The notes under the pieces are model-generated. The model saw only the letters and a list, made by a program, of their open reading frames with translations. It searched no databases and was not told the DNA's origin. Shown piece by piece: positions 22,981 to 57,226 of a stretch of 64,000 nt of DNA; within the stretch, counting starts at the first letter, position 1, and each line of letters opens with the position of its first letter. The position numbers were made by a program, and so were the translations under genes. This DNA comes from Kiritimatiellia bacterium (GTDB lineage: Bacteria > Verrucomicrobiota > Kiritimatiellia > RFP12 > UBA1067): contig JAFPUH010000004.1 of the NCBI GenBank assembly GCA_017395505.1, forward strand, positions 7,910 to 71,909. The letters are read 5' to 3'.

Positions 22981-23964
22981 GTGACCGGCGAAGAGATGAC
23001 AAAGCGTGCGCGCGAGGTCTTCGACATCGAGATCGAAGGCCTGCGCCGTACTCGCGACTCGCTCGGCGAGACGTTCAACGAGGCTGTCCGCATGATTCTC
23101 GACTGCACGGCCAACGGCGGCATACTCGTCGTCTCCGGCGTAGGCAAGAACCTGCACATAGCCGAGAAGATGAGCGCCATTTTCTCCTCGACCGGCACAC
23201 GCTCCATAGTGCTTAATCCCGTGCAGGCCATGCACGGCGACCTGGGCATGGTCTCGGCCAAGGATATCCTTCTCGCCCTTTCGTTCAGCGGCGAGAGCGA
23301 CGAGGTATTGAAGCTCATACCTGCCATCAGGCGTCACGGGCTCAAGGTAATCTCGATGACCGGCAAGCCCGGCTCGACGCTCGCCCAGATGAGCGACCTG
23401 CATATAGAGATACCCTGCGGCAAGGAGGCCTGTCCGTTCGGCATGGCCCCGACCAACTCTACCACGGCTACGATGGCCATGGGCGACGCCCTCGCCATGG
23501 TGCTGATCGACGCCCAGAAGTTCGCCATCGAGGAGTACGCGATGAACCATCCGGCGGGCGCCATCGGCCGCGCGCTCGTGATGAAGGTCACCGACGTCAT
23601 GCGCCACGGCGAGCGCCTTGCGAAGGTGCTGCCTTCGGCCACCGTGATGGCCACGCTTCTCGCCATGACTGCCGCCAAGGCCGGTTCGGCCGTCATAGCC
23701 GACGAGAGCGGCAAGCTGCTCGGCATATTCACCGACGGCGACTTCCGCCGCATAATGAGCGAAGGCCACGCCGACGTTCTCGAGTCGCCCGTCTCGAAGT
23801 TCATGACGGCCTCGCCGATGTTCGTGCGCAACGATGTCTACGCCGCCGAGCTCCTGAAGATCTTCGAGCGCAAGCGCATCGACGACCTGCCGGTCTGCGA
23901 CGCTGAAGGCCGCGTCGTCGGCCTCGTCGACATTCAGGATCTGCCCAAGATGAAGGTTTTATAA
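22981..23964 (+). CDS. kpsF: KpsF/GutQ-family arabinose-5-phosphate isomerase (SIS domain plus tandem CBS)
   Basis: SIS motifs VVSGVGKNLHIAEKMSAIFSSTGT and LALSFSGESDE. The C-terminal CBS pair includes ..AVIADESGKLLGIFTDGDFRR.. and ..LPVCDAEGRVVGLVDIQDL. GTG 22981 is preceded by GGGAGA; ATG 22996 is an alternative start. Confidence 0.88.
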   Translation: MTGEEMTKRAREVFDIEIEGLRRTRDSLGETFNEAVRMILDCTANGGILVVSGVGKNLHIAEKMSAIFSSTGTRSIVLNPVQAMHGDLGMVSAKDILLALSFSGESDEVLKLIPAIRRHGLKVISMTGKPGSTLAQMSDLHIEIPCGKEACPFGMAPTNSTTATMAMGDALAMVLIDAQKFAIEEYAMNHPAGAIGRALVMKVTDVMRHGERLAKVLPSATVMATLLAMTAAKAGSAVIADESGKLLGIFTDGDFRRIMSEGHADVLESPVSKFMTASPMFVRNDVYAAELLKIFERKRIDDLPVCDAEGRVVGLVDIQDLPKMKVL

Positions 23965-23984
23965 GACAAGAAAGGAACTGCCAA

Positions 23985-24728
23985 ATGAACATCAGGAAAT
24001 TTGTGATTTTTGCGACAGCCGCGCTTGTGGCGGCGTCGGTGGTGGCCGCCCCCACCAAGAGCTCGGCCAAGAAGGGCGGCCGCAGCGCCAAGGCCGCCGC
24101 CGTCGAGGATGAGGAGGAGGGCCCCGACGCCAAGGTCAAGATCGACCAGTTCCCCAGGCTCGGCCGCGCCTCGACCATCTCGTTCCCAGGCATCGATGCA
24201 CCGACGACCCTCAACGGACGCGTCTTCACGAAGCCCCGCCAGTGGATTGTGCTCGAGGCGAAGTATACGACGTTCGACCAGCTCGTCGAGCAGCTGACCT
24301 TCACCTGGCACGTGCTTCTCGACAGCAAGACCGCCACCACCAAGGACAAGGAAGCCCTCGCGAAGCGCGCCCCCTACTCCTACTTCACGCAGACCGTCAC
24401 CTACGTGAACATTCCCAGGGGCAGCCACGCCGCCTCGGTCTGCCTGCATCCCAGCTACTTTGAGCAGTATGGCGAGCCCAAGGCCGTCGGCCTCGTCATC
24501 ACCGACAGCAAGGGCAACGTGCTCGCCGGCGATTGCGAGAGCGAGATACAGAAGATACAGTCCCATCCCAAGTCTCTCGACGACGCGTTCTGGAACAAGA
24601 GCGACATCATGAACGCCAAGGCCAACGCCGACGGCGATCCCATGATCGAGCGTCGTCAGGGTCTGCAGGACCGCAGCAAGACGGTCTGGTCCCTCGTCAA
24701 CCCCAACGACTACGAACTGGTGCAGTAA
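23985..24728 (+). CDS. Secreted hypothetical protein, first gene of the pilus-like cluster (occupies the Amuc_1102 position)
   Basis: Signal-peptide-like N-terminus MNIRKFVIFATAALVAASVVAAP, then a K/A/E-rich linker, then a beta-rich body with no motif I recognise. Its TAA stop overlaps the next ATG (TAATG, 24726-24730). Confidence 0.8.
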   Translation: MNIRKFVIFATAALVAASVVAAPTKSSAKKGGRSAKAAAVEDEEEGPDAKVKIDQFPRLGRASTISFPGIDAPTTLNGRVFTKPRQWIVLEAKYTTFDQLVEQLTFTWHVLLDSKTATTKDKEALAKRAPYSYFTQTVTYVNIPRGSHAASVCLHPSYFEQYGEPKAVGLVITDSKGNVLAGDCESEIQKIQSHPKSLDDAFWNKSDIMNAKANADGDPMIERRQGLQDRSKTVWSLVNPNDYELVQ

Positions 24729-26365
24729 TGGGCAAGAAATTCCTCACACTCGACATCGGCGCCGCCAATGTCGCCCTCGCCGAATATGAAGCCGGCGCCA
24801 AAGGTGCGCTGACGCTTCTCAACTACGGCATCGCTCCGCTGTCGGCTCCGCTCGACTCCGGCGACGCGGCCACGATACTCGTGCCCGCGATAATGGATAT
24901 CGTCCGCGAGAAGGGCATACGCCCCGGCCCAGTGGCCGTCTCGCTCTCGAGCCATATGGTCTTCCCGAGGCTTGCGGCGATAACGCCTGCCGGCGGACCC
25001 GAGAAGTTCGAGCAGATGATCCGCTACGAGATCGAGCAGAACGTGCCGTTCCCGATAGACGAGATGGTCTGCGACCGCCAGGTTCTCGGCGACACCGAGA
25101 ACGGCGACAAGTCTGTCATGATCGTCGCGGCCAAGGTCGAGCAGGTCGAGGCCATAACGAACGCCGTCGCCTCGGCCGGCTTCAGGCCCGAGATGGTCGA
25201 CGTCGCCCCGCTCGCCTTCACAAACGCGGTCGATGCCGCGACCGGCGGCGACGGCAGCTGCAAGATACTTCTCGACATCGGCGCCAAGACCACTTCGCTT
25301 ATCATCGCCGAGGGCGAAAAGCTCTACAACCGCTCCATCCCGATCGGCGGCAACAACATCACGCGCGACATTGCCCAGGCGCTTGGCTGCTCTCCGGCCG
25401 AGGCCGAACAGCTCAAGCGCGAGAAGGGCTACGTCTCGCTCGGCGGCGTCGCCGAGGATGAGGATGCCGTCGCCGACCGCGTGGCCAAGGTGTGCCGCGC
25501 CGTCATGAGCAGGCTGCTCGCCGAGATTTCGCGCAGCGTCAACTTCTATCGCTCGCAGCAGGGCGGCGGAGCCCCCGTCAAGCTCTACATCACCGGCGGC
25601 ACGGCCCTCCTGCCGCAGATCGACACGTTCTTCGCAGACTCGCTGCATATCGAAGTCGAGTTCTTCAATCCGTTCGGCTTCATATCCGTCGGCAGCTCCG
25701 TGGACCAGACGACCCTCGGCTCCGACGGCGCGATGCTCACGCCCACCGCCGGTCTCGCGCTGCATATGGCCGGTGTCGCGAAGTTCTCGATAAACCTTCT
25801 GCCCCCGGCCCTCATAGCCGCTCGCGCCGAGAAGGCCAAGATACCCGTGGTGTGCGCGGCTGGCGGACTCTTTGTCGCGGCTCTCGTCCTCGTGATGCTC
25901 GCCGTCGGCAAGCAGTCTGAGGTCGTGCAGACCACCTATGACGCCGTCGAGTCGAAGCTCAACGTCCTTAAGGGCTACGAGACGAAGATGAAGGCCGCCG
26001 AGAAGGAGGTCGATGAGGCCAAGGCTTCGGCCGACGCATTGGCGCGACTCATGGGCTCCCGCTTCAATACGTGCGCAAGGCTCGCCATCGTGCGCAAGAC
26101 CCTCACGCCCGGCTACATGTGGGTCGAACGCTGGGAACCCGGCCGCATCACGATACGCGGCTGGAAGGACATCCTCGACGACTTCGAGAAGATCGACGCC
26201 GCAAGCAACGGCGGCAAGCAGCGTACGGCCTCCGAGATCGTGGCCGCGCGTCTCAAGAGCGAGCCGCTGATCGTAGATCCCGACAGCGTCAGGATATCCG
26301 ACATGACCACGATCGGCAGGAACGGATCCATCCAACAATTCACAGTGGAGCTTAAGTTCAAATGA
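24728..26365 (+). CDS. PilM-PilN fusion protein: an actin-like ATPase-fold pilus assembly protein fused to a PilN-like bitopic membrane domain
   Basis: PilM motifs: LTLDIGAANVALAEY, LLDIGAKTTSLIIAEGEKLYNRSIPIGGNNITRDIAQALGCSPAEAEQLKREKG, LYITGGTALLPQID..FFNPF. The PilN-like part follows: FSINLLPP, the TM segment IPVVCAAGGLFVAALVLVMLAV, a coiled coil, and a C-terminal domain. The track ORF start at 24533 lies inside the upstream gene, so the true start is ATG 24728. Confidence 0.88.
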   Translation: MGKKFLTLDIGAANVALAEYEAGAKGALTLLNYGIAPLSAPLDSGDAATILVPAIMDIVREKGIRPGPVAVSLSSHMVFPRLAAITPAGGPEKFEQMIRYEIEQNVPFPIDEMVCDRQVLGDTENGDKSVMIVAAKVEQVEAITNAVASAGFRPEMVDVAPLAFTNAVDAATGGDGSCKILLDIGAKTTSLIIAEGEKLYNRSIPIGGNNITRDIAQALGCSPAEAEQLKREKGYVSLGGVAEDEDAVADRVAKVCRAVMSRLLAEISRSVNFYRSQQGGGAPVKLYITGGTALLPQIDTFFADSLHIEVEFFNPFGFISVGSSVDQTTLGSDGAMLTPTAGLALHMAGVAKFSINLLPPALIAARAEKAKIPVVCAAGGLFVAALVLVMLAVGKQSEVVQTTYDAVESKLNVLKGYETKMKAAEKEVDEAKASADALARLMGSRFNTCARLAIVRKTLTPGYMWVERWEPGRITIRGWKDILDDFEKIDAASNGGKQRTASEIVAARLKSEPLIVDPDSVRISDMTTIGRNGSIQQFTVELKFK

Positions 26366-27369
26366 ACAAGTCGAAGATAGTTCTCGCCGCCGTCGGCGGA
26401 GTGACGCTCGTCGCCTCGCTCGCCTTGGCGTATTTCATCTGGAGCGCGATGTCCGAGAGGTCGGAGCGTCTTGACGAGCTCGCCGGCGCCGAGCAGTCGC
26501 TCATCAACATGATGAAGCTGCCGGTCAACCCCAGCCCAGAAGCCATCAAGGCCTATCAGGCGAACGCCGAGACCTACGACAACTGGAAGGACGACGCCAA
26601 GAAGCTCGTCACTACCGGCGACATGATCTTCGAGCCCACGACTCCGCCCGCCCTCAAGGCGTTCATGGTCGAGGACGCCCGCCGCCTTTCGTCCCTGCCG
26701 GGCCGCACCGACGGCGTTATCGTGCGCCCCGAGTTCGCGTTCGGCTTCAAGGAGTTCGTTCTCGACGGCAACATGCCGGCCGAGGCCGATCTCGCCAAGA
26801 TACAGCGCGAGTGGTACGACATGTCGGTCGTCGTCGAGACCATGTCTAAGAGCGGCGTCATCGAGATAACCGATCTCACGCTCATCGGCGACGCGCCCCA
26901 GCCGGCCGCCGAGCAGCAGCCGGCCGCCGGCAACCGCCGCCAGCGAAAGGGCGCCAAGCCCGCCGCAAAGGCGAAGGCCGCCGAGCAGTGTGAAGGCCCC
27001 GCCGTCACCCGCATGCGCGTCGAGTTCCGCGCCATGCCCCCGGCGCTCGTCGCCGTGGCCAACAGCCTCATGATGTCGCGCAGGTTCATCGTCGTCGACG
27101 ACCTTACTTTCTCGCGCGAGAGGGATGAACTCTCCGAGAAGCTTGGCGGCGATCCCAAGAAGGCCGCCGAGGCTCAGTCGAGCAGGGGCGGCCGCCGCGG
27201 TCGCCGCGGTCGTCAGGAGGAAGCCGAGGAGCCCGCCGAGAACGAGGCGCTGTCGGGCATAGTCACCGATCCGATGATGGCTCCCGCGCTCAAGGTTTCA
27301 ATGTTGATATCGGTCTACGACTTCCGTTCGCTCGAGGCCGACAAGACCGAGACGGAGGAGCAGAAATGA
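26362..27369 (+). CDS. Bitopic membrane protein in the PilO position; Amuc_1100-like by my recollection of that sequence
   Basis: ATGA overlap with the upstream gene. N-terminal TM segment IVLAAVGGVTLVASLALAYFIW, then a coiled coil. TTPPALKAFMVEDARRL, FGFKEF and MRVEFRAMPPALVAVANSLMMSRRFIVVDDLTFSRER parallel the segments I remember from Amuc_1100 (TTPTAFQNELKTFRD; LEIAFQGDRESVLKAMNAITGMQDYLFTVNSIRIRNER). The tails are low-complexity and basic/acidic (GNRRQRKGAKPAAKAKA; GGRRGRRGRQEEAEEPAENE). Confidence 0.6.
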   Translation: MNKSKIVLAAVGGVTLVASLALAYFIWSAMSERSERLDELAGAEQSLINMMKLPVNPSPEAIKAYQANAETYDNWKDDAKKLVTTGDMIFEPTTPPALKAFMVEDARRLSSLPGRTDGVIVRPEFAFGFKEFVLDGNMPAEADLAKIQREWYDMSVVVETMSKSGVIEITDLTLIGDAPQPAAEQQPAAGNRRQRKGAKPAAKAKAAEQCEGPAVTRMRVEFRAMPPALVAVANSLMMSRRFIVVDDLTFSRERDELSEKLGGDPKKAAEAQSSRGGRRGRRGRQEEAEEPAENEALSGIVTDPMMAPALKVSMLISVYDFRSLEADKTETEEQK

Positions 27370-28469
27370 AACAGGGCAACGGCAATTTCTTTACGCAGCA
27401 CTACGAGTGGCTCGCCGCCGCGGTCGCGATAGTCGCGCTCGCCCTCGCGGCGCTCTTCTTCGTGAAGGCCATGGGTGAGGATGGCGAAGCCAGCGCCGCC
27501 GAGAAGGTGCGCCGCATAGACGCCCGCAGGAGCGACGCCAATGTCGTCACCCAGCCCGACATGTCCCTCTACCAGATTCTCATGCGCAACACCCAGGCGC
27601 CTACGTCCGTCGGCGAGCTGAACCCCGTCGGCTACAGCTTCCTCGCGAGCGGCCGCCGCGTCTTCTGCGCCCTGCCTGACTGCCACGCGCCGATTCCGCC
27701 GGACTCCAAGCAGTGCCCCGTCTGCAAGCGTGACCAGCCAGAGGAGGAGAAGCCTGAGGTCGTGCTGGATGCCGACGACGATGGACTCCCCGACGAGTGG
27801 GAGCGCCGCTTCGGTCTGAGCCCGAACAACTCCGGCGACGCCGATGAAGATCTCGACGGCGACGGCTTCACCAACCGCGAAGAGTATGAGGCCGGCACTG
27901 ATCCGAGCGACAGGCACAGCCACCCCGACTACCTCGATTCCCTCAAGCTAAAGCTGCCCCTCAAGCAGACCACGCTGCCGTTCTACCTCAGGTCCTACAT
28001 GAAGACGCCCAACGGCATGAAGCTCGAGTTCTTCAATCCGAGCGAGAGGAACGACTACGGCACCCGCGGCAAGGCGTATTCGGTATTCGTCGACCAGGAT
28101 GTCGGCGCCACCGGCTTCGTCGCCAAGTCGTTCGAGCAGAAGAAGAGCGTCGCCAAGATCGCCGGCGGCGGCGGCGCCACGCGCGAAGTCGATGCGTCGT
28201 TCGCCATGGTCGAGCGCAAGAGCGACGGCAAGCAGATAAAGGTCGTCGTCTCCGGCGCCAAGCCCAAGCGCGCGCCCGTCGATGTGCAGGCGGTGCTCGT
28301 CTACGAGCGCGGCGAAGTAAAGGAGTTTACGGTCGTTCCCGCCGACAAGATCAACCTCAACGGCAGCGAGTATGTCGTGAAGGAGATCAAGTCTGTCGGC
28401 AAGGGCGCGTCGGTGACTCTAGTGGATTCGACCGGCAAGGAGCGGACACTCGAAGCACTTGAACAATAA
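27366..28469 (+). CDS. PilP-like lipoprotein/anchor protein with an inserted CxxC..CxxC zinc ribbon and two TSP3-like Ca loops (Amuc_1099 position)
   Basis: ATGA overlap with the upstream gene. TM segment WLAAAVAIVALALAALFFV. Zinc ribbon CALPDCHAPIPPDSKQCPVCKR (27667-27732). TSP3-like loops DADDDGLPDEWERRFGLSPNN and DEDLDGDGFTNREEYEAGTDPSD. C-terminal beta-domain: ..VLVYERGEVKEFTVVPADKINLNGSEYVVKEIKSVGKGASVTLVDSTGKERTL, which has the PilP-like pattern. Confidence 0.6.
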   Translation: MKQGNGNFFTQHYEWLAAAVAIVALALAALFFVKAMGEDGEASAAEKVRRIDARRSDANVVTQPDMSLYQILMRNTQAPTSVGELNPVGYSFLASGRRVFCALPDCHAPIPPDSKQCPVCKRDQPEEEKPEVVLDADDDGLPDEWERRFGLSPNNSGDADEDLDGDGFTNREEYEAGTDPSDRHSHPDYLDSLKLKLPLKQTTLPFYLRSYMKTPNGMKLEFFNPSERNDYGTRGKAYSVFVDQDVGATGFVAKSFEQKKSVAKIAGGGGATREVDASFAMVERKSDGKQIKVVVSGAKPKRAPVDVQAVLVYERGEVKEFTVVPADKINLNGSEYVVKEIKSVGKGASVTLVDSTGKERTLEALEQ

Positions 28470-28487
28470 GAAAATTTAGAGTATAAT
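28459..28487 (+). promoter_or_regulatory. sigma70-like promoter candidate, TTGAAC-17-TATAAT, directly upstream of the secretin gene
   Basis: TTGAAC at 28459-28464 (inside the last codons of the PilP-like gene), a 17-nt spacer, and TATAAT at 28482-28487. Confidence 0.5.
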
Positions 28488-28511
28488 ACACCCAGAATAC
28501 CTCCAAGGAGC

Positions 28512-31500
28512 ATGAGATCGAATATGACGAATCTAAAGACAATCGCCGCCGTCAGCGCGGCCATGGCCGTCATCGCCTGCGGATCACTTGCATTCGCGCA
28601 AGACGATCTTGACGATCTTCTGAAAGACCTCGAAAGCGACCTTGCGGCCGAGACCGCTGGCGTCGCGGCCGTAGAGGAGGCGCCCGAGGCCGAGCCTGAA
28701 GCGGAGCCCGAGGTTGCTCCCGAGGTCGAGCCCGAAGAAGCTCCTGAGGTCGAGCCCGAGGCCGATGCCGATGCCGATGCCGAAGAGCCGGCTGAAGAGC
28801 CCGCCGACGAGGAAGAGCCTGTAGCGGCTGAAGAGCCGGCTGCCGAGGAGCCTACGGAAGAGCCTGCCGATGACGCGGAGCCCGAAGTCGAGCCTGAGGC
28901 CGATGCCGAAGAGCCGGCTGAAGAGCCCGCCGACGAGGAAGAGCCTGTAGCGGCTGAAGAGCCCGCTGACGAGGAGCCCGCGGAGGAACCAGCTGACGAA
29001 GAGCCTGCGCCTGAGGTTGAAGAGCCCGCCCCTGCTGACGAGGAGCCCGCGCCCGAAACCGAAGAGCCCGCTGAGACGGAGGAGCCTGCTGTCGAGGAGG
29101 CGACAGAAGAGCCCACCGCCGAAGAGCCTGCTCCTGAAGCTGAAGAGCCTGCTCCTGCTGACGAGGAGCCCGCGTCCGGAACCGAAGAGCCCGCGCCTGC
29201 CGCAGAAGAGCCTGCCGAGGTTACGGCCGAGCAGGTCGACGAGGCGATTTCGCTTCTCGCAGACATTGCCGCCTCCGAGGTTGGCGGCGAAGGCGAAACG
29301 CCCGCCGCTGTAGAGCCAGCTGCTGCGAAGCCCGCTCCTGCGAAGCCCGCAGTTGTCGACCCTGACGCCGAGCTTCTCGCCAACATCACAGCTACCGAAA
29401 AGCTGCGCCGCAACGCTTATGACGCGCAGGCCAAGCGTGAGGTCGTTGCCGCCCGCGCCGCTCTCGCCGCCGGCGACAACCTTGAGGCCTCGAAGCGCTA
29501 TGCGCTGGCCCTCAAGCTCATGAACGACAGCCCGGCCACCAAGAAGCTTCGCCGCGAGTGCGAGCAGGGCATCGCCGAGAGCCTCTACCGCGCCGCTATG
29601 GAAGAGGAGCGCCTCGGCCGCAGGACCAACGCCATCGAGGTCATGAACCGCGCCCTGGCGATGCGCCATCCCAAGGCCCGCAAGCAGCTTGAGACCTGGA
29701 ACACTTCGGAGGATCCCAACGCCAACAAGAAGGCGCTCTCCGACATCAAGCACCGCCGCAACGAAGACGACTACAAGGCCAAGCGCGCCAAGAACCAGCG
29801 CCACCTTAAGCGTGCCCGCCAGCTTCTCGCCGTCAAGGAGATAGATGAGGCTCTCGACGAGTGCGAGCTTGTGTTGGTGAACGACCCCTACAACCAGGAG
29901 GCCATCCGTCTCCGCAAGGCCATCCAGAAGAAGCGCGCCGTCATTCTCGGCCAGGAGTTCCAGGTGACCCGCGAGGCGATGATCGCCGATGTCGACCGCG
30001 CATGGCGCCCGGTCTACGCGCCGAACGCCCGCGAGATCGATGAGGCTTCGTCCTCTACCGTCAGGCGTTCGATCGGGGAAGACCCCGAGCGCACGATCGA
30101 GCAGTCGATCCGCCAGAGGATGAAGGAGATGATCCTGCCGCAGATCTCGTTCAAGCCGCCGGCTACGATCATCGACGCCATCGACTTCTTCCGCACCGCT
30201 TCGAAGGACTACGACCGCCCCGACATTCCGCTTGAGGAGCGCGGCTTCAACTTCGTCATCAAGTCCGATACGCCCCTCTACTCCAAGGCTCCCGCGCCCG
30301 AGGTTGAGGATGCCGACGACTTCTCCGACAGCGGCGATGAAGAGGAGGTTCCCGCCGGCGTCGACGGCGTGCCCGTCATCCAGACGATCACCGCCACGAA
30401 CATTCCTTTCGACGAGGCTCTGCAGCTCGTCTGCGAGTCGGTCAAGTACAAGTACACCGTCAAGGGCCGCATCGTCATGATCATGCCCGAGGATGAGACG
30501 ACCGAAGAGATGCTCATCCGCAGCTATCCCGTCATGGCGACGTTCATGGAGAAGATGGACTCCGTCTCCAGTGAAATCAGCGACAGCGGTTTCGGCGTCA
30601 GCTCCAGCCGCAAGAGCAAGAGCGACGACGAGCCTACGATGGAGGACAAGCTGAAGAACGTATTTGAGCAGCTCGGCGTCAGCTGGCCCGAAGGCAGCAA
30701 GATCTTCTACATGTCGGCCACCGGCAAGCTGCGCGTCAAGAACACCGAGAAGAACCTGAGCGAAATCGAGAAGGCGCTCGTCGAACTCAACGCCGAGCAG
30801 AAGCTCGTCGAGATCGAGGCCCGCTTCGTCGAAGTCGGTCAGGACGACCTCAACTCTCTCGGCTTCGAATGGATTCTCAATAGCGATTACACCGCTGCCG
30901 GCGGCGGGTGGTTGGCCAGGAAGCTCGGCATCAAGGAAGGCGGCTACGTCAAGTCTTCCGGAACCTCCACAACCAACGCTGGTAGCTCCGAAGCGCCGAC
31001 CACATCCGCGTCTGGCTCTACGATCAACGGATCTTGGGCTAAACCGTCGAATGCCAACAAGTCCAACCTCGGCAACTTCGGCATAAACGCGATGGGCGGT
31101 ACAGATGCCACATACGGCAACGGCAACCGCTACCTCTCCACCGACAGCAACCATATTTCGGGCAACGGCAAGTCGACAAACGACCAGTTCATGCGCGTCA
31201 ACGCGTTCCTCGGCTCCGCCGACCTGTCGATGATTCTCCACATGCTCTCGCAGCGCAGCGATACGGACCTTCTCTCCGCGCCTAAGGTGCTGACCCGTCC
31301 GAGCAACCGCGCCGTCATCCGCGTCGTCACCGAATACATCTATCCGCAGGACTACACGGTTCAGCTGACCTCCGGTTCCAGCTCGTCGTCGTCGTCCAGC
31401 TCTGGTTCCAGTTCGGTTCTCGCGATCGTCGAGCCTGAGAACTTCACGATGCGCGAGGTCGGCGTGATTCTCGACGTCACCCCGAACCTCACCGACGCCG

Positions 31501-32087
31501 GCAACTTGATCGAGCTCGAGCTCAAGACCGAGATCGTCGACGAACCCACCTGGAAGAACTACGGCATGAGAATTCCGTTCACCGGCAACAGCTCGCTCCA
31601 GAACTTCCAGGGTATCGGCGAGATCTTCTCCGGCCTTGCCGAGTCTATCACAGCTCTCGGAACTGGCGTGAGCAGCACACTGAAGGAGTGGATCATTCAG
31701 TCTGAGGTTAATGCTGCCGAGGAAGCGCTTGCGGGCCTGACTTCCTCCACCGCTGACAACATGACCTACTATGAAGCGCCGATGGAGCAGCCGTTCTTCC
31801 ATATGCGCAAGATCGAGTCCACAGTGTCGATCTATCCCGGTGCGACGATCGTCATGGGCGGTCTCATCACCGAGACCCGCAGGGCCATGGACGACAAGAT
31901 TCCGTTCCTCGGCGACCTGCCGTTCATCGGGCGTCTCTTCCGCAGCCATGCCGAGGAGACGAAGAAGAAGAACCTGCTCATATTCGTCACGACGCGCCTT
32001 GTCGACGTTCGCGGCCGCGAGGTCTCGGTCGGCGAGGGGGAAGTTGTGTCTGACGCTCAGGTGAGGGCTGCCCCAGAGCAGCAGTGA
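28512..32087 (+). CDS. Secretin (GspD/PilQ family), 1,191 aa, with an acidic Pro/Glu repeat of about 190 aa and a TPR-like helical N-terminal region
   Basis: Signal peptide ..KTIAAVSAAMAVIACGSLAFAQDD. The secretin C-domain includes DLLSAPKVLTRPSNRAVIRVV and KIPFLGDLPFIGRLFRS...KKNLLIFVTTRLVD. AAGGAG lies upstream of ATG 28512. Confidence 0.9.
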   Translation: MRSNMTNLKTIAAVSAAMAVIACGSLAFAQDDLDDLLKDLESDLAAETAGVAAVEEAPEAEPEAEPEVAPEVEPEEAPEVEPEADADADAEEPAEEPADEEEPVAAEEPAAEEPTEEPADDAEPEVEPEADAEEPAEEPADEEEPVAAEEPADEEPAEEPADEEPAPEVEEPAPADEEPAPETEEPAETEEPAVEEATEEPTAEEPAPEAEEPAPADEEPASGTEEPAPAAEEPAEVTAEQVDEAISLLADIAASEVGGEGETPAAVEPAAAKPAPAKPAVVDPDAELLANITATEKLRRNAYDAQAKREVVAARAALAAGDNLEASKRYALALKLMNDSPATKKLRRECEQGIAESLYRAAMEEERLGRRTNAIEVMNRALAMRHPKARKQLETWNTSEDPNANKKALSDIKHRRNEDDYKAKRAKNQRHLKRARQLLAVKEIDEALDECELVLVNDPYNQEAIRLRKAIQKKRAVILGQEFQVTREAMIADVDRAWRPVYAPNAREIDEASSSTVRRSIGEDPERTIEQSIRQRMKEMILPQISFKPPATIIDAIDFFRTASKDYDRPDIPLEERGFNFVIKSDTPLYSKAPAPEVEDADDFSDSGDEEEVPAGVDGVPVIQTITATNIPFDEALQLVCESVKYKYTVKGRIVMIMPEDETTEEMLIRSYPVMATFMEKMDSVSSEISDSGFGVSSSRKSKSDDEPTMEDKLKNVFEQLGVSWPEGSKIFYMSATGKLRVKNTEKNLSEIEKALVELNAEQKLVEIEARFVEVGQDDLNSLGFEWILNSDYTAAGGGWLARKLGIKEGGYVKSSGTSTTNAGSSEAPTTSASGSTINGSWAKPSNANKSNLGNFGINAMGGTDATYGNGNRYLSTDSNHISGNGKSTNDQFMRVNAFLGSADLSMILHMLSQRSDTDLLSAPKVLTRPSNRAVIRVVTEYIYPQDYTVQLTSGSSSSSSSSSGSSSVLAIVEPENFTMREVGVILDVTPNLTDAGNLIELELKTEIVDEPTWKNYGMRIPFTGNSSLQNFQGIGEIFSGLAESITALGTGVSSTLKEWIIQSEVNAAEEALAGLTSSTADNMTYYEAPMEQPFFHMRKIESTVSIYPGATIVMGGLITETRRAMDDKIPFLGDLPFIGRLFRSHAEETKKKNLLIFVTTRLVDVRGREVSVGEGEVVSDAQVRAAPEQQ
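28672..29230 (+). repeat. In-frame acidic (E/P/A/D) tandem repeat inside the secretin gene; it includes an exact 62-bp duplication (28776-28837 = 28902-28963, period 126 bp)
   Basis: The string gatgccgaagagccggctgaagagcccgccgacgaggaagagcctgtagcggctgaagagcc occurs twice. Degenerate GAAGAGCC(C/T/G)GC units run throughout. A second near-repeat pairs about 29019-29070 with about 29143-29193. Confidence 0.9.
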
Positions 32088-32629
32088 CCGGAGTGAAGAA
32101 AAGATTACGTGTCGCGCTCACCGGCGGCATAGCATGCGGCAAGTCTCTTGCCGCATGTTTCTTGCGTGAATTGGGCTACCCTACGATCGACGCCGACGAC
32201 CTCGCCCATGCGCTGATCTCGCCAGAAGAGAGAAAGGCGCTCGCGAAGACCGTCTTCCGCGACCCGGAGGCGAGGCGGGCGCTCGAGGCGAGGCTCCACC
32301 CGCAGATACGTCGCGCCCTGCACGAGGCTTTCGAGGGGAACGGAGCCGAACTTCCTCTCATTGAGGTTATACCTCTTCTCTTCGAGGTGCATTGGAACGG
32401 CGATTATGATATAATATGCTGCGTCAAGTCCGAAAGGGCGACTCAGCTCTCGAGGATGCAGACGACGCGCGGCCACACGCGCGAAGAGGCCGAGGAGCGC
32501 ATCGGCGCGCAGATGCCGGTTGCCGAGAAGGCCGAGAAATCCCACTATGTGATCGCGAACGACGGGTCTTGCGAAGACCTTCGCAAAGCGGTCTCGGAAT
32601 TCGCGAGATGGCTCGCGAAGCAGCAATAG
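32084..32629 (+). CDS. coaE: Dephospho-CoA kinase
   Basis: P-loop ALTGGIACGKS. The size (about 180 aa) and ..LHPQIRRAL.. and ..EVIPLLFE.. fit the CoaE pattern. GTG 32084 overlaps the secretin TGA; GTG 32093 is an alternative start. Confidence 0.8.
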   Translation: MTGVKKRLRVALTGGIACGKSLAACFLRELGYPTIDADDLAHALISPEERKALAKTVFRDPEARRALEARLHPQIRRALHEAFEGNGAELPLIEVIPLLFEVHWNGDYDIICCVKSERATQLSRMQTTRGHTREEAEERIGAQMPVAEKAEKSHYVIANDGSCEDLRKAVSEFARWLAKQQ

Positions 32630-32641
32630 CAAGGAGACGAC

Positions 32642-34186
32642 ATGGCAGATGAACTGGACGTGTTCGCGGGCGCGATGCCTGCGAAGAGCGCGAGCGGCGC
32701 ACAGCCGCCGCAGCAGCCCAAGCCGGCTGCAAAGAAGTTCTTTGGCGGGCGCAAGCCTTTTCAGCGGCATGCGCAGGGCAAGCAGAACAATTCCCCGATA
32801 CGGGGCTCGAACGGCGAGGAGTCTGTGAACCCTCTGCTGAACGCCCCTCTTCCGGCCGAGCAGAGGTCGCAGGAGCCCGAGGCGCCTGCCAACCCCAACC
32901 GCAACCCCGAATTGCCCGAATACAGGCTTGCGGATATCCAGACCTGGCCCGCGCCTGTCATAGTAGAGCGCATGATGCCCGGCGCCGATCCCGAAGAGCT
33001 CGGCACCTACCGCAAGCACGAGCTTATCTTCGCCGCGATACGAACCTACCTCAAGAACGGCGGAGCGGTGCTCGCTTCCGGATGCCTCGAGATCATGCGC
33101 GAGGGCCACGGCTTTCTGAGATCGGCCAAGAACAACTTCCTGGCCTGCCCCGAGGATGTCTTCGTCACCCAGCAGCAGATTCGACGCCACGCCCTCAGGA
33201 CGGGCGACGTCGTAGAAGGGCCGATTCGCGATCCGAGGGACCGCGACCGCTTCTTCTGCCTCGGCGGCGCCACGGCCGTGAACGGCAAGGAGCCTTCGGT
33301 CGCCGCCCGCGTGATTCATTTCGAGAACCTCACGCCTACCTTCCCGACGCGCCGCATCATACTCGAGACGACGCCGACTGAGTTCTCCACCAGGGTCATA
33401 GACCTCTTCACCCCGATCGGCTTCGGGCAGCGCGGCCTCATAGTCGCCCCTCCGAGGGTCGGCAAGACGGTGCTTCTTCAGAAGATGGCGAACGCCATAA
33501 CGGCCAACCACCCCGATGCCATCCTGATAATCCTGCTGGTCGACGAGCGCCCCGAGGAAGTCACCGACATGCAGCGCAACACCAAGGCGATGGTGCTCTC
33601 GTCGACGTTCGACGAGGAGCCCCAGCATCACGTCAGCGTCGCCGAGATGGTGATCGAGATGTCGAAGCGCCAGGTCGAGAACGGCAAGGATGTCGTAATA
33701 CTCCTCGACTCCATCACCCGCCTGGCCCGCGCCTACAATACCGTCCAGCCGCATTCCGGCAAGATCCTGACGGGCGGCGTCGACGCCCTCGCCCTGCACA
33801 GGCCGAAGCGCTTCTTCGGCGCGGCTCGCAACATCGAGGGCGGCGGCTCGCTGACGATCATCGCCACCGGCCTCGTCGACACCGGCTCGCGCATGGACGA
33901 GGTCATCTTCGAGGAGTTCAAGGGCACCGGCAACATGGAGCTTGTCCTAGACCGCGGCCTTGCCGACAAGAGGATATTCCCGGCGATCGACATCGACAAG
34001 TCCGGCACCCGCAAGGAGGACCTTCTGCTTGATCCGGTCGAGCTCGAGAAGACGTGGGGCCTGAGGCGCATACTGGCCGACGTCGGCCCCGAGTCTGCGA
34101 TGAAGAGCGTGCTCAACTCGCTGAAGAAGACGAAGTCCAATCCCGAGTTCATACTTGCGCTCGACCTCAAGAACATAGTCCGCTGA
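32642..34186 (+). CDS. rho: Transcription termination factor Rho with a low-complexity N-terminal extension
   Basis: [14 protein letters not shown] and [16 protein letters not shown] (the CSD-like RNA-binding region). Walker [45 protein letters not shown] and [19 protein letters not shown]. Confidence 0.93.
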
Positions 34187-50307: not shown

Positions 50308-51438
50308 ATGATGAAAAGGCAACTTCTGGCGGTCGCGCTGGTTGCAGCGTCGGTGAATGCGCTCGCGGTCAGCGAGCAGACCATCCTTTGGAAGAACGGC
50401 GACGGCGGCATAGCCGTCTACCGCATCCCTGCGATATGCACCGCGCCCAACGGCGACTTGGTTGCGGTGTGCGACGCCAGAAGCCGCAACGGCGGCGACC
50501 TCAACATATACCAGCCGATCAACATCAGCTGCCGCCGCTCGTCCGACAACGGTGCGACGTGGAGCGATCCCGTGAACACGTGGACATGGCGCTGGGACGA
50601 GGAGGAGCAGTGGAGCGGCTCCGACCCCAGCCTCATCGTGGACGAGACGACCGGAACGATCTTCCTCTTCTACAACGTGTGGGAGTGGAAGCACCAGAAG
50701 GACATCTACCAGTTCTTCGTGCAGGAGTCGAAGGACAACGGCGCCACATGGTCGAAGCCTCGCGACATCTCGAAGGACATCGCATTCGAGGGGTGGAACT
50801 TTGGCGGCATGCGCGGCCAGGGCGGCTTCATCTTCATCTCTTCCGGCTCGGGAGTGCAGATGAAGGACGGCACGCTCATGCATACCATCGTGCGCGTGGG
50901 CGGTCCGACCGAGGTGGCTCTCTTCGGCTCAAGCGACCACGGCAAGACCTGGCGTCATTTCGGCAACCCTGTCAAGCAGGGCGACGAGTGCAAGTTCGTC
51001 GAGCTTGACGACGGCACGTGGATGATCAACTCCCGTTGCCAGGCCGGCAGCCGCGAGGTGCACCGCTCTACCGACCAGGGCAAGACCTGGACTTCCGAGA
51101 CCAACTACGATCTGCTCGACCCCGCCTGCAACGCTCAGCTCATGAAGTATCCTCTCGCCAGGGCGTCGGGTTCGGACAAGACCTCCAACGCCGATCTGCC
51201 CGAGCATGTGCTTCTCTTCTCGAACTGCAAGTCGCGCGGCCGCAACAACCTCTTCCTGCGTACGAGCTGGGACGACGGCAAGACCTGGACGCCTGGCGTG
51301 TCCATCGAGCCCGCCGGCGCGGCCTACTCCGATATGACGATCCTCAAGAACGGCGAGATCGGCGTGCTCTTCGAGGGCGCCGGCTATGCCACGATCCGTT
51401 TCTGCAGGCTTGAGCCCCGCGAGTTCCTCGCGAGGTGA
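50308..51438 (+). CDS. nanH: Exo-alpha-sialidase (GH33-like six-bladed propeller), secreted
   Basis: Signal peptide MMKRQLLAVALVAASVNALA. YRIP motif (IAVYRIPAI). Five Asp-boxes: SSDNGATW, SKDNGATW, SSDHGKTW, STDQGKTW, SWDDGKTW. Confidence 0.9.
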   Translation: MMKRQLLAVALVAASVNALAVSEQTILWKNGDGGIAVYRIPAICTAPNGDLVAVCDARSRNGGDLNIYQPINISCRRSSDNGATWSDPVNTWTWRWDEEEQWSGSDPSLIVDETTGTIFLFYNVWEWKHQKDIYQFFVQESKDNGATWSKPRDISKDIAFEGWNFGGMRGQGGFIFISSGSGVQMKDGTLMHTIVRVGGPTEVALFGSSDHGKTWRHFGNPVKQGDECKFVELDDGTWMINSRCQAGSREVHRSTDQGKTWTSETNYDLLDPACNAQLMKYPLARASGSDKTSNADLPEHVLLFSNCKSRGRNNLFLRTSWDDGKTWTPGVSIEPAGAAYSDMTILKNGEIGVLFEGAGYATIRFCRLEPREFLAR

Positions 51439-51480
51439 TACGGCGGCATAAGGCTTTAACCTTGGAAAGGTCCAGATAAC

Positions 51481-54024
51481 ATGAAGACAAGACTACTCGC
51501 CGTCGCGCTTTGCGCCACGTTGAATTCGTTCGCCACTCCGATCAGCGTCGAGTGGAAGGCTCCCGAGACAATGCCGGTCAGCGTGGCCAGGCCTTTCGCA
51601 GGTTTTCTGCCGGATGGTCGCTTTCTGGTGGCCGGCGGCACCGACTTCATCGTCGGAGAGGACGGTAGCCGCGTCAAGACGTGCTTCGATGCCGTCAGCG
51701 TGCGCGATGCGGACGGCAACTGGACCTCTGCCGGAGCGCTGCCCCATATCGTCGGCGAGGGCGTGTCGTGCGAGACCCCGCGCGGCATCTTCTGCGCTGG
51801 CGGGTATGACGGCGTTCAGGTGTTTTCAGACGCCTACATCCTCACGGGAGACTCCGTCGAGCCGCTACCCCAGCTGCCCCGCCAGGTTCTGATGGGCGCC
51901 GCCGCGTGCGACGGCGACAAGGTGTATGTCGTCGCCGGTCGCGAGATATACGCCCTGTCCCTGAAGGGCGGTGACGGATGGCAGCTCATCGCCGAGCTGC
52001 CCGGTCCCAACCGTTCGCAGATGGTTGCCGCGGTTCAGAACGGCGACCAGAAGGAGAAGCGCCTCGTCGTCTACGGCGGCTTCTCGCTTGAGGACAAGAC
52101 TCCGCTTCGCGATGGCTACGCCTATGTGATATCCAACGGCGACCTCATCAAGCTCTCCGACCTGCCCGAGGGCATGACAACCATCGGTGCAGCGTTCCTC
52201 CCCAGCGGACACCAGCACATCCTGCTCGTCGGCGGCTTTGGCTCGAAGGGCTGGGTCGCCCGTGCGATATACGGTTCGACAGAGACCGATCCAGTTGCTC
52301 TTGGCTGGCAGCGCAAGATTCTCGCCTACAACGCCGTCACCGACGCTTGGTGCGAATATGGCGAGATCGCCGAGGGTGATGTTCCGCGTTGCGGTGCCGC
52401 TGCCGGTCTCAAGCCCGGCAAGACGCCTGAGAGCTATACGCTCCTGATCGCCGGCGGCGAGAAGGCTCCCGCCCTCCGCACCAACACAGTTTCTGTCGCA
52501 AGCTTCAGGAAGATGGGCAAGTTCGGCGCTACCGCCTGGGGCGTCGTCGGCGTCTATGCCTTGCTGATGGTCGGCATGGCCTGCATATTCATCTTCAAGA
52601 AGAAGGACGAGAACGACTACTTTCGCGGCGGAAACAGGATTCCCTGGTACGTCGCCGGAATGTCGATCTTCGCCACGATGCTCTCCTCGATAACGTTCAT
52701 CGCGATCCCGACCCAGGCCTATCTGCAGGACTGGCGCTATTTTGTGATGGCGTTCTTCATCATAGGCATGGCTCCCGTCGCCATCTACTACTACCTGCCG
52801 TTCTTCTGCCGCCTCGGCATAACCTCGGCATACGAGTACCTCGAGAAGCGCTTCAACCTCGGCGTGCGCCTCTTTGGCTCGGCCGCGTTCGTAGTGTTCA
52901 TGGTCTGCCGCGTCGCTGTCGTGACCCTGCTGCCTGCCATTGCGCTCAACGCCGTGACCGGTGTATCCATAGACGCGTGCATCCTAATCTGCGGCATACT
53001 CACGATGATATACTGCTCGCTCGGTGGACTTGAGGCCGTCATCTGGTCCGACTTCGTCCAGGGTATCGTGCTCATGGGCGGCGCCGTCTCGGTGCTTGTC
53101 ATACTGATCATGAAGACCGGTCCCGACGGTGCTCACTTCTCGACCTTCTGGAACGTCGCCGACGCCTACGGCAAGAACAAGATGTGGGACTTCCGCCTGC
53201 TCTTCACACAGCCCGTCTTCTGGGTCGTGGCGGTTCAGGGCCTCATCTCGAACCTTTCGAGCTACACCTCCGACCAGTGCGTCATCCAGCGCTACATCGC
53301 CACGCCGGACGAGAACGCCACCAAGCGTTCGCTCTGGTTCAACGGCTGCATGAGCGTCTTCGCGCAGATCGTGTTCTACGGAATCGGCATGGCGCTCTTC
53401 GCGTTCTACCACACCCATCCGGAGGCGATGGACATCACCATGCCCAAGGGCGACTCCGTGCTGCCAATCTTCATGGCGACCGAGATGCCGCCGTGGCTCG
53501 CCGGTCTCGTCATTGCGGCCGTCTTCGCCGCCACGATTTCGACGCTTTCGGCGAACCTCTCCTCGGCGTCGACCGCTGTCGTAACCGACTTCATTAAGCG
53601 CTTCAAGCCTGACATCCCCGGCAAGACCCAGATCCGCTGCGGCCAGGTCTGCACATACGTCGTGGGCATCCTCGGCATCATGGCGGCGCTCACCCTTGCT
53701 CGCATGGAGTCGTCGGCGCTCTTCGACAACTTCAACAAGTACATCGCGATGCTGACGGCCGGCCTCACGGGACTCTTCTTCATGGGCGTATTCATGCCTC
53801 GCATCAAGGGCATGGCTGCGGTCTGCGGCCTTGCGGCGAACTACTTCGTCTGCTTCAGCTGCGAGATACTCCACTGCGACGTGTTCGGCCTGAAGTTCCA
53901 TCCGTTCCTGCTCGGCGGCATCGGCCTTGTGGTCTGCGTGCTCGTGGCCTACATCTGCTCGATCATCTTCCGCGAGAAGGGGCGTGACCTTACCGGCCTT
54001 ACGCTCAAGACGCTCAAGAAGTAA
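51481..54024 (+). CDS. Fusion protein: an N-terminal NanM-like Kelch propeller (sialic-acid mutarotase family) joined to a C-terminal sodium:solute symporter (SSS)
   Basis: Signal peptide MKTRLLAVALCATLNSFA. Kelch-like blades include ..FLVAGGTDF.., ..IFCAGGYDG.., ..VYVVAG.., ..LVVYGGF.., ..LLVGGFG.. and ..LLIAGGEKAPALRTNTV. The last of these parallels the C-terminus of E. coli NanM as I remember it. From about nt 52530 come 13 or so TM helices with an SSS-type start: YFRGGNRIPWYVAGMSIFATMLSSITFIAIPTQAY. Confidence 0.8.
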   Translation: MKTRLLAVALCATLNSFATPISVEWKAPETMPVSVARPFAGFLPDGRFLVAGGTDFIVGEDGSRVKTCFDAVSVRDADGNWTSAGALPHIVGEGVSCETPRGIFCAGGYDGVQVFSDAYILTGDSVEPLPQLPRQVLMGAAACDGDKVYVVAGREIYALSLKGGDGWQLIAELPGPNRSQMVAAVQNGDQKEKRLVVYGGFSLEDKTPLRDGYAYVISNGDLIKLSDLPEGMTTIGAAFLPSGHQHILLVGGFGSKGWVARAIYGSTETDPVALGWQRKILAYNAVTDAWCEYGEIAEGDVPRCGAAAGLKPGKTPESYTLLIAGGEKAPALRTNTVSVASFRKMGKFGATAWGVVGVYALLMVGMACIFIFKKKDENDYFRGGNRIPWYVAGMSIFATMLSSITFIAIPTQAYLQDWRYFVMAFFIIGMAPVAIYYYLPFFCRLGITSAYEYLEKRFNLGVRLFGSAAFVVFMVCRVAVVTLLPAIALNAVTGVSIDACILICGILTMIYCSLGGLEAVIWSDFVQGIVLMGGAVSVLVILIMKTGPDGAHFSTFWNVADAYGKNKMWDFRLLFTQPVFWVVAVQGLISNLSSYTSDQCVIQRYIATPDENATKRSLWFNGCMSVFAQIVFYGIGMALFAFYHTHPEAMDITMPKGDSVLPIFMATEMPPWLAGLVIAAVFAATISTLSANLSSASTAVVTDFIKRFKPDIPGKTQIRCGQVCTYVVGILGIMAALTLARMESSALFDNFNKYIAMLTAGLTGLFFMGVFMPRIKGMAAVCGLAANYFVCFSCEILHCDVFGLKFHPFLLGGIGLVVCVLVAYICSIIFREKGRDLTGLTLKTLKK

Positions 54025-54045
54025 AATCCAAGAGGATTCTCGTCC

Positions 54046-55551
54046 ATGAACGCGATGCTTGCGACTGCTGCGGTAGAGGCTTCGTCCGGATGGTTGGCGA
54101 AGTTGTCCGCTCTGGTTGACCTGGTCGACAGCTACGTCTGGGGCCTGCCGCTCATATTGACGGTTCTCGTTACGGGAATCGTGGTGACCTCGTTCCTGAG
54201 GATGGAGCACCTCTTCCACCTCAAGCGCGCGTTCTACTACATGGTGCGCACTGAGAAGGGCGTAGAAGCGACCGGCGAGGTGTCTGCGTTCGGTGCCCTC
54301 TGCACTGCGCTTTCGGCCACGATCGGAACCGGCAGCATCGTCGGCGTCGCGACCGCCATCGGAATGGGCGGCCCCGGCGCCCTCTTCTGGATGATGGTTG
54401 CCGCATTCTTCGGAATGGGCACAAAGTACGCCGAGGGTCTGCTTGCGGTCAAGTACCGCACGGTTGACAGCGACGGCAAGGTCCTTGGTGGCCCATTCTA
54501 CTACATAGAGAAGGGGCTCGGCCCGAAGTGGAAGCCGCTGGCCGTGATGTTCGCCATCTTCGGCACCCTGGCCGCGCTCTTCGGAATCGGCACGATAACC
54601 CAGATACACGGCATCACCTCGGCGGTGCAGATCTTCTTCGACTCGGGGTTCGACCCCGGCGACATGTCGACCGGTCTGCACCTCTTTGGCTCGACCTATG
54701 CAGTGAGCACGGTCGTGGCTGGCGCCATCGTGACCATCGCAACGGCCATGGTGCTTATCGGCGGCCTCAAGCGCATCGCCACAGTATCTACGTTCGTCGT
54801 GCCTTTCATGGCCGTGACCTACCTGGTGATGTGCGTGTTCATCATACTCGGCAACATCTCGCACATCCTCTGGGCGCTCCAGACGATCGTCCGCTCCGCC
54901 TTCAACCCAGCCGCTGCCACAGGCGGTGCTGTCGGCTCCATATTTGTAGCCATGCAGATGGGCATAGCGCGAAGCATCTTCGCGACGGAAGCCGGCCTGG
55001 GCTCTGCTCCTATCGCCGCCGCCGCCGCCAGGACGAAGGAGCCTGCCCGCCAAGGTCTCGTCTGCATGATGGGAACCTTCTTCACGATCATCATCTGCCT
55101 CATGACCGGCCTTACGATCGTGCTCGCCGAGACATGGCGTCCCGAGCTCGGACTGGAGGGCGCCAAGATCACCATCGAGGCGTTCACCAGGGGGCTCGCG
55201 TTCCTGCCCAATTCGGACTTCACGGCGCGCCTCTTCATCATGGTCTCGCTCGGCTTCTTCGCCTTCACGACGATTCTCGGCTGGAACTACTACGCAGAGC
55301 GCTGCCTGGAGTATCTAGTGGGCAAGAAGAAGTCCGTCATCATGACGTACCGCTTCCTCTACATCGTTGTCGTCGCCATAGGCCCCTACCTCACGGTCTC
55401 CGTCGTGTGGGGCTTTGCTGACGTCTTCAACGGCCTCATGGCCTTCCCGAACCTCGTGGCTCTCATACTGCTCTCCCCGGTCGTCTGGCAGACGACTAAG
55501 GAGTTCCTGGCGAAGTGCCGCGAGCGCGAGAAGTGGATCGAGTACGAATAG
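54046..55551 (+). CDS. Alanine/glycine:cation symporter (AGCS) family transporter
   Basis: GEVSAFGALCTALSATIGTGSIVGVATAIGMGGPGALFWMMVAAFFGMGTKYAEGLLAVKYR is the hallmark AGCS N-terminal block. The protein is polytopic. Confidence 0.88.
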   Translation: MNAMLATAAVEASSGWLAKLSALVDLVDSYVWGLPLILTVLVTGIVVTSFLRMEHLFHLKRAFYYMVRTEKGVEATGEVSAFGALCTALSATIGTGSIVGVATAIGMGGPGALFWMMVAAFFGMGTKYAEGLLAVKYRTVDSDGKVLGGPFYYIEKGLGPKWKPLAVMFAIFGTLAALFGIGTITQIHGITSAVQIFFDSGFDPGDMSTGLHLFGSTYAVSTVVAGAIVTIATAMVLIGGLKRIATVSTFVVPFMAVTYLVMCVFIILGNISHILWALQTIVRSAFNPAAATGGAVGSIFVAMQMGIARSIFATEAGLGSAPIAAAAARTKEPARQGLVCMMGTFFTIIICLMTGLTIVLAETWRPELGLEGAKITIEAFTRGLAFLPNSDFTARLFIMVSLGFFAFTTILGWNYYAERCLEYLVGKKKSVIMTYRFLYIVVVAIGPYLTVSVVWGFADVFNGLMAFPNLVALILLSPVVWQTTKEFLAKCREREKWIEYE

Positions 55552-55589
55552 TCCTTTTCACCAACAAACCCCAAACAAGGAAAAAACAA

Positions 55590-56480: not shown

Positions 56481-56503
56481 GTCGCCGACCTTTCGTAACT
56501 GAT

Positions 56504-56539
56504 GGCGCCCTCCTTCGGGAGGGCCGCCGTCGCTTTTTT
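56504..56539 (+). terminator. Rho-independent terminator after nanA
   Basis: GGCGCCCTCC-TTCG-GGAGGGC(C)GCC stem-loop (56504-56528), followed by GTCGC and TTTTTT (56534-56539). Confidence 0.7.
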
Positions 56540-56549
56540 GCGAACCTAG

Positions 56550-57224: not shown

Positions 57225-57226
57225 AC

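Follow-up and report, generated by a model that had tools for sequence, protein, structure and literature searches.

The locus described here raises the question of whether Amuc_1100, an effector protein of a human gut commensal that ranks among the most studied of its kind and whose native role is still debated, belongs to a family of pilus-like assembly proteins that extends well beyond Akkermansia. The locus lies in a 64,000-nucleotide stretch of the genome of a gut or rumen Kiritimatiellia bacterium (contig JAFPUH010000004.1 of GenBank assembly GCA_017395505.1; this entire stretch is hereafter called the window, with positions counted from its first letter). A first-pass annotation, made from the sequence alone, had proposed that the gene at 26362-27369 on the forward strand (335 amino acids, ATG start, TGA stop) encodes an Amuc_1100-like protein occupying the place of PilO. 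This protein is a true, very diverged homolog of Amuc_1100, with a predicted PilO-like fold, and is most likely a bitopic inner-membrane subunit of the PilO/GspM class in a type IV pilus-like envelope machine.

The open reading frame (ORF) is a real gene that is translationally coupled to both of its neighbors, with ATGA overlaps at the two ends (26362-26365 with the preceding gene and 27366-27369 with the next one). Its product belongs to a large family: 91 homologs were identified in a 90%-clustered protein collection (E-values from 1e-204 to 1e-35), a profile search against 1.84 billion representatives yielded 1120 clusters (50% identity) at E ≤1e-3 and 623 at E ≤1e-10, and more than 200 full-length homologs were collected. 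Following the short basic N-terminus MNKSK, the protein contains an uncharged hydrophobic stretch of 23 residues (6-28; 26377-26445, forward strand), which is the hydropathy maximum of the sequence (mean Kyte-Doolittle value of 2.2 over 19 residues) and represents an N-terminal membrane anchor conserved throughout the family, Akkermansia included, as seen in a joint alignment. In the AlphaFold model, which was built on 40 homologs and has a mean pLDDT of 79, exceeding 90 in the core, a continuous helix spans residues 3-52 and is followed by helices 59-84, 95-110, 141-164, and 226-237, and by a four-stranded alpha/beta core (strands 168-175, 214-224, 242-252, and 310-320) that is interrupted by two disordered loops, 176-213 and 253-309. 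Hydropathy and the model thus bear out the anatomy originally read from the sequence, namely, a single N-terminal transmembrane helix, a coiled coil, and a C-terminal alpha/beta region. The proline/alanine-rich linker had been assigned to the segment preceding the last strand, and this detail has to be corrected: the P/A/K-rich segment is loop 1, between strands 1 and 2 (26887-27000, forward strand; 42% P+A, 7 K+R, predicted to be disordered with pLDDT <50), whereas loop 2 contains only 21% P+A and is charged.

Several comparisons weigh against homology to Amuc_1100 when taken in isolation. The Amuc_1100 query used for these comparisons is identical to 6KNY_A over residues 31-317, and its residues 1-30 are backed by a 99% match to an Akkermansia homolog. 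BLASTP of the 335-aa protein against this query was not significant (E 2.1, about 15% identity), its best segment being the PTTPPALKAF/PTTPTAFQNE block; neither phmmer with the single sequence nor a 40-member profile of fairly close relatives run with hmmsearch retrieved any Amuc_1100 chain from the PDB even at E 10; and the score against the NCBIfam model NF038287 (Amuc_1100_fam), 57.3 bits, falls far short of the equivalog cut-off of 180 bits. The alignment of the 40-relative profile with the single Amuc_1100 sequence by hhalign likewise reached a probability of only 38%. On the NF038287 scale, Akkermansia proteins score 237-300 bits, and the other non-Akkermansia members range from no match at E 0.001 up to 90 bits.

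The conclusion that the protein is a homolog nevertheless stands because NF038287, a broader family profile, hhalign, Foldseek, and the families of the neighboring genes all agree. The match to NF038287 is itself significant (E 1.7e-15) and runs through residues 7-296 of the protein and positions 9-288 of the 326-position model. A profile of 57 diverse family representatives, searched against the PDB, matched 6LAD and 6KNY (E 1.8e-8) and 6LAF (E 2.2e-4), all three Amuc_1100 structures, and nothing else at E <0.01. In further hhalign comparisons, the family aligned to the single Amuc_1100 sequence at 95.8% probability (E 7.3e-9) and to a profile of 12 Akkermansia proteins at 97.4% probability (E 1.6e-11, 228 columns); in the joint alignment, the last strand of the 335-aa protein is matched with that of the Akkermansia proteins too. 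Furthermore, the Pfam family PF28028 (“Amuc_1100”) is precomputed on 89 of the 91 homologs, including one that is 97% identical to the 335-aa protein, appears under this name at the 97%-identical locus L016, and is listed for the Akkermansia Amuc_1100 proteins as well.

The two sequence blocks that had been paired by eye with Amuc_1100 show no pairwise similarity above chance but come out in the same register in the profile alignments. The TTPPALKAF... block (residues 93-109; 26638-26688, forward strand) matches TTPTAFQNE... of Amuc_1100 consistently in BLASTP, hhalign, and hmmsearch, and the strand-helix-strand block MRVEFRAMPP...TFSRER (residues 218-254; 27013-27123, forward strand; pLDDT about 95), which forms the second alpha-beta-beta motif, pairs with LEIAFQGDRES...IRIRNER in hhalign and hmmsearch. 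Seven positions are at least 90% conserved in the joint alignment with Akkermansia (F129, P139, G165, F242, P304, V312, and F321). In the tree of the family, a branch with a length of about 4.9 changes per site separates the Akkermansia sequences from all other members.

Comparison of predicted and experimental structures points in the same direction. When the model is searched against the PDB with Foldseek, Amuc_1100 chains take the first 10 places (6KNY, 6LAF, and 6LAD; E-values from 8.5e-9 to 7.4e-7, target TM scores of 0.63-0.74, probability 1.00). The first-pass annotation had named a non-significant pairwise E-value combined with an unlike fold as the outcome speaking against its reading; only the pairwise part of that combination was found. 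The runners-up are PilO structures, namely, 2RJZ_A from P. aeruginosa (E 1e-2, probability 1.00, TM 0.55), with 5UVR (TM 0.65) and 3JC8_Oa from the Myxococcus pilus-machine model (E 2.7e-2) among the further matches; no GspM/EpsM chain is present among the 50 best matches. As judged from the model, the 335-aa protein has the Amuc_1100 fold, that is, four helices and a four-stranded antiparallel sheet arranged in two alpha-beta-beta motifs, and also displays a PilO-type predicted architecture consisting of a bitopic anchor, a coiled coil, and a ferredoxin-like core.

The similarity to Amuc_1100 covers the length class (335 versus 317 aa), the anchor, the helical region, the four-helix, four-strand double alpha-beta-beta core with its two long loops, the collinear profile alignment, and the fold, for which Amuc_1100 is the best match. 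The proteins differ in that they are only about 15% identical, with no significance in the pairwise comparison and a score below the equivalog cut-off, and in the composition of both loops: loop 1 is acidic in Akkermansia but basic and P/A-rich in the 335-aa protein, and loop 2 is a neutral Pro/Ala linker in Akkermansia but contains GRRGRRGR, an acidic run, and VTDP here. TLR2 signaling is known for the Akkermansia protein only. With PilO (2RJZ and 5UVR of P. aeruginosa, 3JC8 of Myxococcus), the protein shares the bitopic anchor, the coiled-coil helix, the ferredoxin-like double alpha-beta-beta core, and the position of the gene after those for PilM and PilN and before that for the secretin; unlike PilO, it is recognized by no PilO sequence model, exceeds PilO in length by about 150 residues, and carries an additional helical region (59-133) as well as two charged loops that are disordered. 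GspM/EpsM proteins are also bitopic, with a ferredoxin-like periplasmic domain and GspL as their partner, but the 335-aa protein is much longer than these, its matches to them are below the cut-offs, and they are missing among its best fold matches.

The 335-aa protein is encoded immediately downstream of a PilM-PilN fusion (545 aa; 24728-26365, forward strand) that belongs to the Amuc_1101 family (NCBIfam Amuc_1101_fam, E 1.5e-111). The fusion exceeds the cut-off of the pilM model TIGR01175 (157 versus 133) and matches PilM (3jc8_Ma, E 2.9e-46, residues 3-348) and PilN (3jc8_Na, E 0.003, residues 353-478) in the PDB, with an FSINLLPP motif at the PilM/PilN junction. An alternative start of the fusion at TTG 24533, which would add 65 codons, is probably spurious, and ATG 24728 was adopted. 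Two genes downstream of the 335-aa gene, a secretin of the Amuc_1098 family is encoded (1191 aa; 28512-32087, forward strand; Pfam Secretin, E 2.7e-30; NCBIfam Amuc_1098_fam, E 5e-127), which scores slightly higher with PilQ than with GspD (E 5.4e-36 for the latter). The intervening gene (367 aa; 27366-28469, forward strand) occupies the PilP position and encodes a protein of the Amuc_1099 family (NCBIfam Amuc_1099_fam, 80.6 versus a cut-off of 50) with a membrane anchor, a zinc-ribbon-like four-cysteine motif, TSP3 loops, and an all-beta C-terminal region. The cluster opens with an Amuc_1102-like secreted protein (247 aa; 23985-24728, forward strand), for which the NCBIfam Amuc_1102_rel match is weak (E 1.2e-3); the gene of the same length and position in the 97%-identical locus is, however, precomputed as PF28178 (“Amuc_1102”). 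The TAA stop of this gene and the ATG of the fusion overlap by one base (TAATG). The 335-aa gene thus takes the same place in the five-gene cluster as Amuc_1100 does in Akkermansia, where coaE and rho follow as well (PMC13174399). The claim of a PilO slot is supported by gene order on the upstream and far-downstream sides; for the adjacent downstream gene, it is the position that suggests a putative equivalence with PilP.

Several results weigh against assigning the protein to the PilO/GspM class. Among its Pfam matches at E up to 1, there is no PilO family; T2SSM_b reaches only 13.8 bits (E 0.057) against a cut-off of 21.7, and NCBIfam NF040576 (T2SS_GspM_XpsM) only 17.8 bits (E 0.002) against a cut-off of 60, both of these weak matches mapping to residues 195-255, at the second alpha-beta-beta motif. 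The 367-aa protein has no sequence match in the PDB and no PilP match by either sequence or fold. No pilin, extension ATPase, or platform gene was detected within the window. The topology in the membrane, the pairing with the PilN-like half, the connection to the secretin, and the cargo of the machine are inferred. Finally, Amuc_1100 itself has been reported in outer-membrane-enriched fractions and, according to a personal communication, on type IV pili (PMC10688800). Weighed against these points, the PilO folds found by Foldseek and the PilM-PilN and secretin context support the original suggestion of a PilO/GspM-like subunit. A paralogy of PilN and PilO was not apparent, given that hhalign of the family against the C-terminal half of the fusion recovered only the similarity of anchor and coiled coil (56.7%).

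If the protein is indeed such a subunit, its basic N-terminus would stay in the cytoplasm, residues 6-28 would cross the inner membrane, and the long helix would run on into the periplasm, to be followed by the helical region and the ferredoxin-like double alpha-beta-beta core. The helix and the core would most likely pair with the periplasmic, PilN-like half of the fusion encoded upstream and, together with the Amuc_1099-family protein, the 335-aa protein would connect this inner-membrane platform to the outer-membrane secretin of the Amuc_1098 family. Judged by the homologous MUL2 locus of A. muciniphila, this machine probably serves to attach to host or dietary glycans or to take them up; in that species, MUL genes are required for the acquisition of mucin (PMC12418764; bioRxiv 10.64898/2025.12.30.696933). 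A sialic-acid utilization set is also present in the window, within 50308-58390, and comprises a BNR sialidase (50308-51438), a fusion of a NanM epimerase with a sodium:solute symporter (SSF; 51481-54024), and a GlcNAc 2-epimerase (57227-58390). The set is in keeping with foraging on host glycans and, in this, parallels the ecology of Akkermansia.

Three other explanations have to be weighed against the assignment of the 335-aa protein as an inner-membrane PilO/GspM-class subunit. The most radical one, that the likeness to Amuc_1100 reflects chance or convergence of low-complexity bitopic proteins and the family is unrelated, would account for the failure of BLASTP, phmmer, and the 40-relative profile but leaves unexplained the significance of three independent profile methods that are collinear over about 230 columns, the fold matches at a Foldseek probability of 1.00, and the fact that all four neighboring genes match the corresponding Akkermansia families; we consider it very improbable. 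A less drastic alternative, which is the main rival, accepts the homology and derives from it a surface-exposed, pilus-associated, or outer-membrane protein whose N-terminus is a secretion signal and whose role is contact with the host or substrate. The outer-membrane fractionation, the personal communication on pili, and the binding of TLR2 by Amuc_1100 (PMC10688800) would carry over to a homolog. The N-terminus, however, looks uncleaved because, at 23 residues, the hydrophobic stretch exceeds the usual length of a Sec h-region, the only candidate cleavage site ending in Ala (WSA|M) has Trp rather than a small residue at -3, and the segment continues as a single helix through residues 3-52. 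The retention of the anchor across the whole family, the inner-membrane PilO proteins as the next-best folds after Amuc_1100, and the embedding of the gene, with overlapping stop and start codons, between the PilM-PilN fusion and the secretin-side genes also argue against a surface protein, and the spread of the family over rumen, gut, and other metagenomes (about 1100 clusters at 50% identity) speaks for a structural role of the housekeeping kind. We regard a surface location as unlikely.

Under the remaining alternative, the cluster encodes a type II secretion-like exporter in which the fusion would stand for GspL and the 335-aa protein, the 367-aa protein, and the secretin for GspM, GspC, and GspD, respectively. 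GspL combines an actin-like domain with a bitopic periplasmic domain, and the fusion is accordingly a protein of GspL-like architecture with a PilM-like sequence; it also produces a weak GspL match (E 5.6e-4), to be added to the marginal GspM matches on the second alpha-beta-beta motif and the GspD match of the secretin. These signals are outweighed by their pilus counterparts: PilM is a far better match to the fusion than GspL is, PilO appears in the Foldseek top 50 where GspM/EpsM does not, and the secretin slightly prefers PilQ. In addition, the Akkermansia homologs are tied to pili and mucin uptake rather than to export (PMC13174399; PMC12418764), and no GspE, GspF, or pseudopilin genes were found in the window. 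The exporter scenario is therefore less well supported than the pilus-like one, and its chances appear as slim as those of a surface protein. Compared with PilO systems, the Kiritimatiellia locus, read as pilus-like, still differs in the fusion of PilM and PilN and in that the protein encoded before the secretin is not recognizably PilP.

Comparison with related loci indicates how old this arrangement is. We examined 15 loci of species-representative genomes, the majority of them metagenome-assembled genomes (MAGs) of rumen and gut origin, labeled by their submitters as Kiritimatiellia in most cases and otherwise as Verrucomicrobia or Lentisphaerae. The order kdsD, 1102-like gene, PilM-PilN fusion, 1100-like gene, 1099-like gene, secretin, coaE, rho is retained in all 15, as far as the fetched DNA reaches (kdsD in 12 of the 15; coaE and rho in 4). 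The PilM-PilN fusion is present in the 13 loci where its gene is complete; in the other two (L001 and L004), the gene is cut by the contig end. The Akkermansiaceae MUL2 loci are likewise drawn with the secretin, dephospho-CoA kinase, and rho as neighbors (PMC13174399, 2026). Because the order recurs in the 15 related loci, and its secretin-coaE-rho part in the MUL2 loci, the arrangement (22981-34186 in the window) seems to have been inherited rather than transferred, which suggests very old vertical inheritance. Within the cluster, the 1100-like gene is among the most diverged by sequence comparison: in 13 of the 15 loci, no other gene is less identical to its counterpart in the window. Across the loci, its identity is 32-62%, whereas the fusion reaches 57-79% and the secretin 52-72%.

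The existence of non-Akkermansia members was presented in the first-pass annotation as an extension of the family, which is correct but not new, given that such members are already covered by Pfam and NCBI. Among ten distant representatives that were looked up, one came with an organism name. A distant Kiritimatiellia homolog, MBQ7189322.1, is named “Amuc_1100 family pilus-like protein” by NCBI; it scores 83.5 bits against the NF038287.2 cut-off of 180, so that the name presumably comes from an earlier version of the model or an earlier cut-off. Full-text searching for papers that mention Kiritimatiellia along with Amuc_1100 turned up none on the Kiritimatiellia copies. The structural similarity of Amuc_1100 to PilO/PilN has already been published (bioRxiv 10.64898/2025.12.30.696933; PMC11573778), and one paper calls Amuc_1100 PilO. 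The finding is thus correct but ordinary, both the family and its PilO-like fold being known.

A second correction concerns loop 2. The arginine-rich GGRRGRRGRQ (residues 276-285) and the acidic EEAEEPAENE (286-295; together 27187-27246, forward strand), inserts that the first-pass annotation had pointed out, are located inside this loop and are followed by the VTDP motif (301-304) and the last strand (310-320), which ends in YDF (27262-27321, forward strand; strand pLDDT about 96). The Arg-rich tract, however, is not confined to this copy: 197 of the 220 full-length family members contain 10 consecutive residues with at least 5 Arg, which Amuc_1100 does not. Among the 40 relatives, R278, R279, and R281 are at least 90% conserved, and D303, P304, and F321 are invariant. 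In Akkermansia, loop 2 is a neutral Pro/Ala linker lacking the Arg-rich tract. As far as can be told from the aligned sequences, the tract is a trait of the family (about 90% of the members), and the Akkermansia clade is the odd one. A co-occurrence of the Arg-rich loop with an acidic tract in the secretin was considered and found to be unsupported. The secretin of the window has a strongly acidic N-terminal tract of 237 residues (25-262; 28584-29297) with 100 D+E and 1 K+R, as do five of the related secretins (L001, L002, L004, L005, and L014), but several others have mixed-charge N-terminal tracts, and the 10 of 14 loci that are represented in the 40-relative alignment all keep the Arg tract.

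Some further features of the locus are worth recording. In the 367-aa Amuc_1099-family protein, the four cysteines (C101, C106, C117, and C120) are invariant in the family alignment and lie, together with the TSP3 calcium-binding loops, in a supposedly periplasmic segment; the AlphaFold model of this protein (pLDDT 77) has no significant fold match in the PDB, its confident all-beta C-terminal region included. Beyond the cluster, coaE, rho, and uvrA are located further downstream, and ackA, pta, and kdsD further upstream. Just upstream of ackA-pta-kdsD and the pilus-like cluster, two giant ORFs occupy 3-20750 (one of more than 2800 aa, running off the start of the window, and one of 4081 aa), with Laminin_G_3 and TSP3 as their only Pfam matches. 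At the opposite end of the window (61525-64000, reverse strand), genes for the A and B subunits of a V/A-type ATPase are present.

The gain for the understanding of Amuc_1100 is a confirmation, along with a small correction concerning the conserved Arg-rich loop. The locus shows that, well beyond Akkermansia, the family is a structural component of a pilus-like envelope machine and is deeply conserved, and the same neighbors combined with the uncleaved-looking anchor support Amuc_1100 as an assembly subunit of the PilO class rather than a dedicated host-signaling protein. More speculatively, and with the odds clearly against it, the Arg-rich/acidic/VTDP loop, which is conserved in about 90% of the family and missing in Akkermansia, may represent a linear motif that has a function in an ancient machine with fused PilM-PilN, spanning at least Kiritimatiellia and Verrucomicrobiota, with Akkermansia Amuc_1100 being a derived, loop-remodeled PilO/GspM subunit. 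Were this the case, the loop could, while glycans are captured or imported, retain polyanionic ones (sulfated or sialylated) or else an acidic partner, such as the N-terminal tract of the secretin, and the host signaling of Akkermansia Amuc_1100 would be secondary to its role in inner-membrane assembly.

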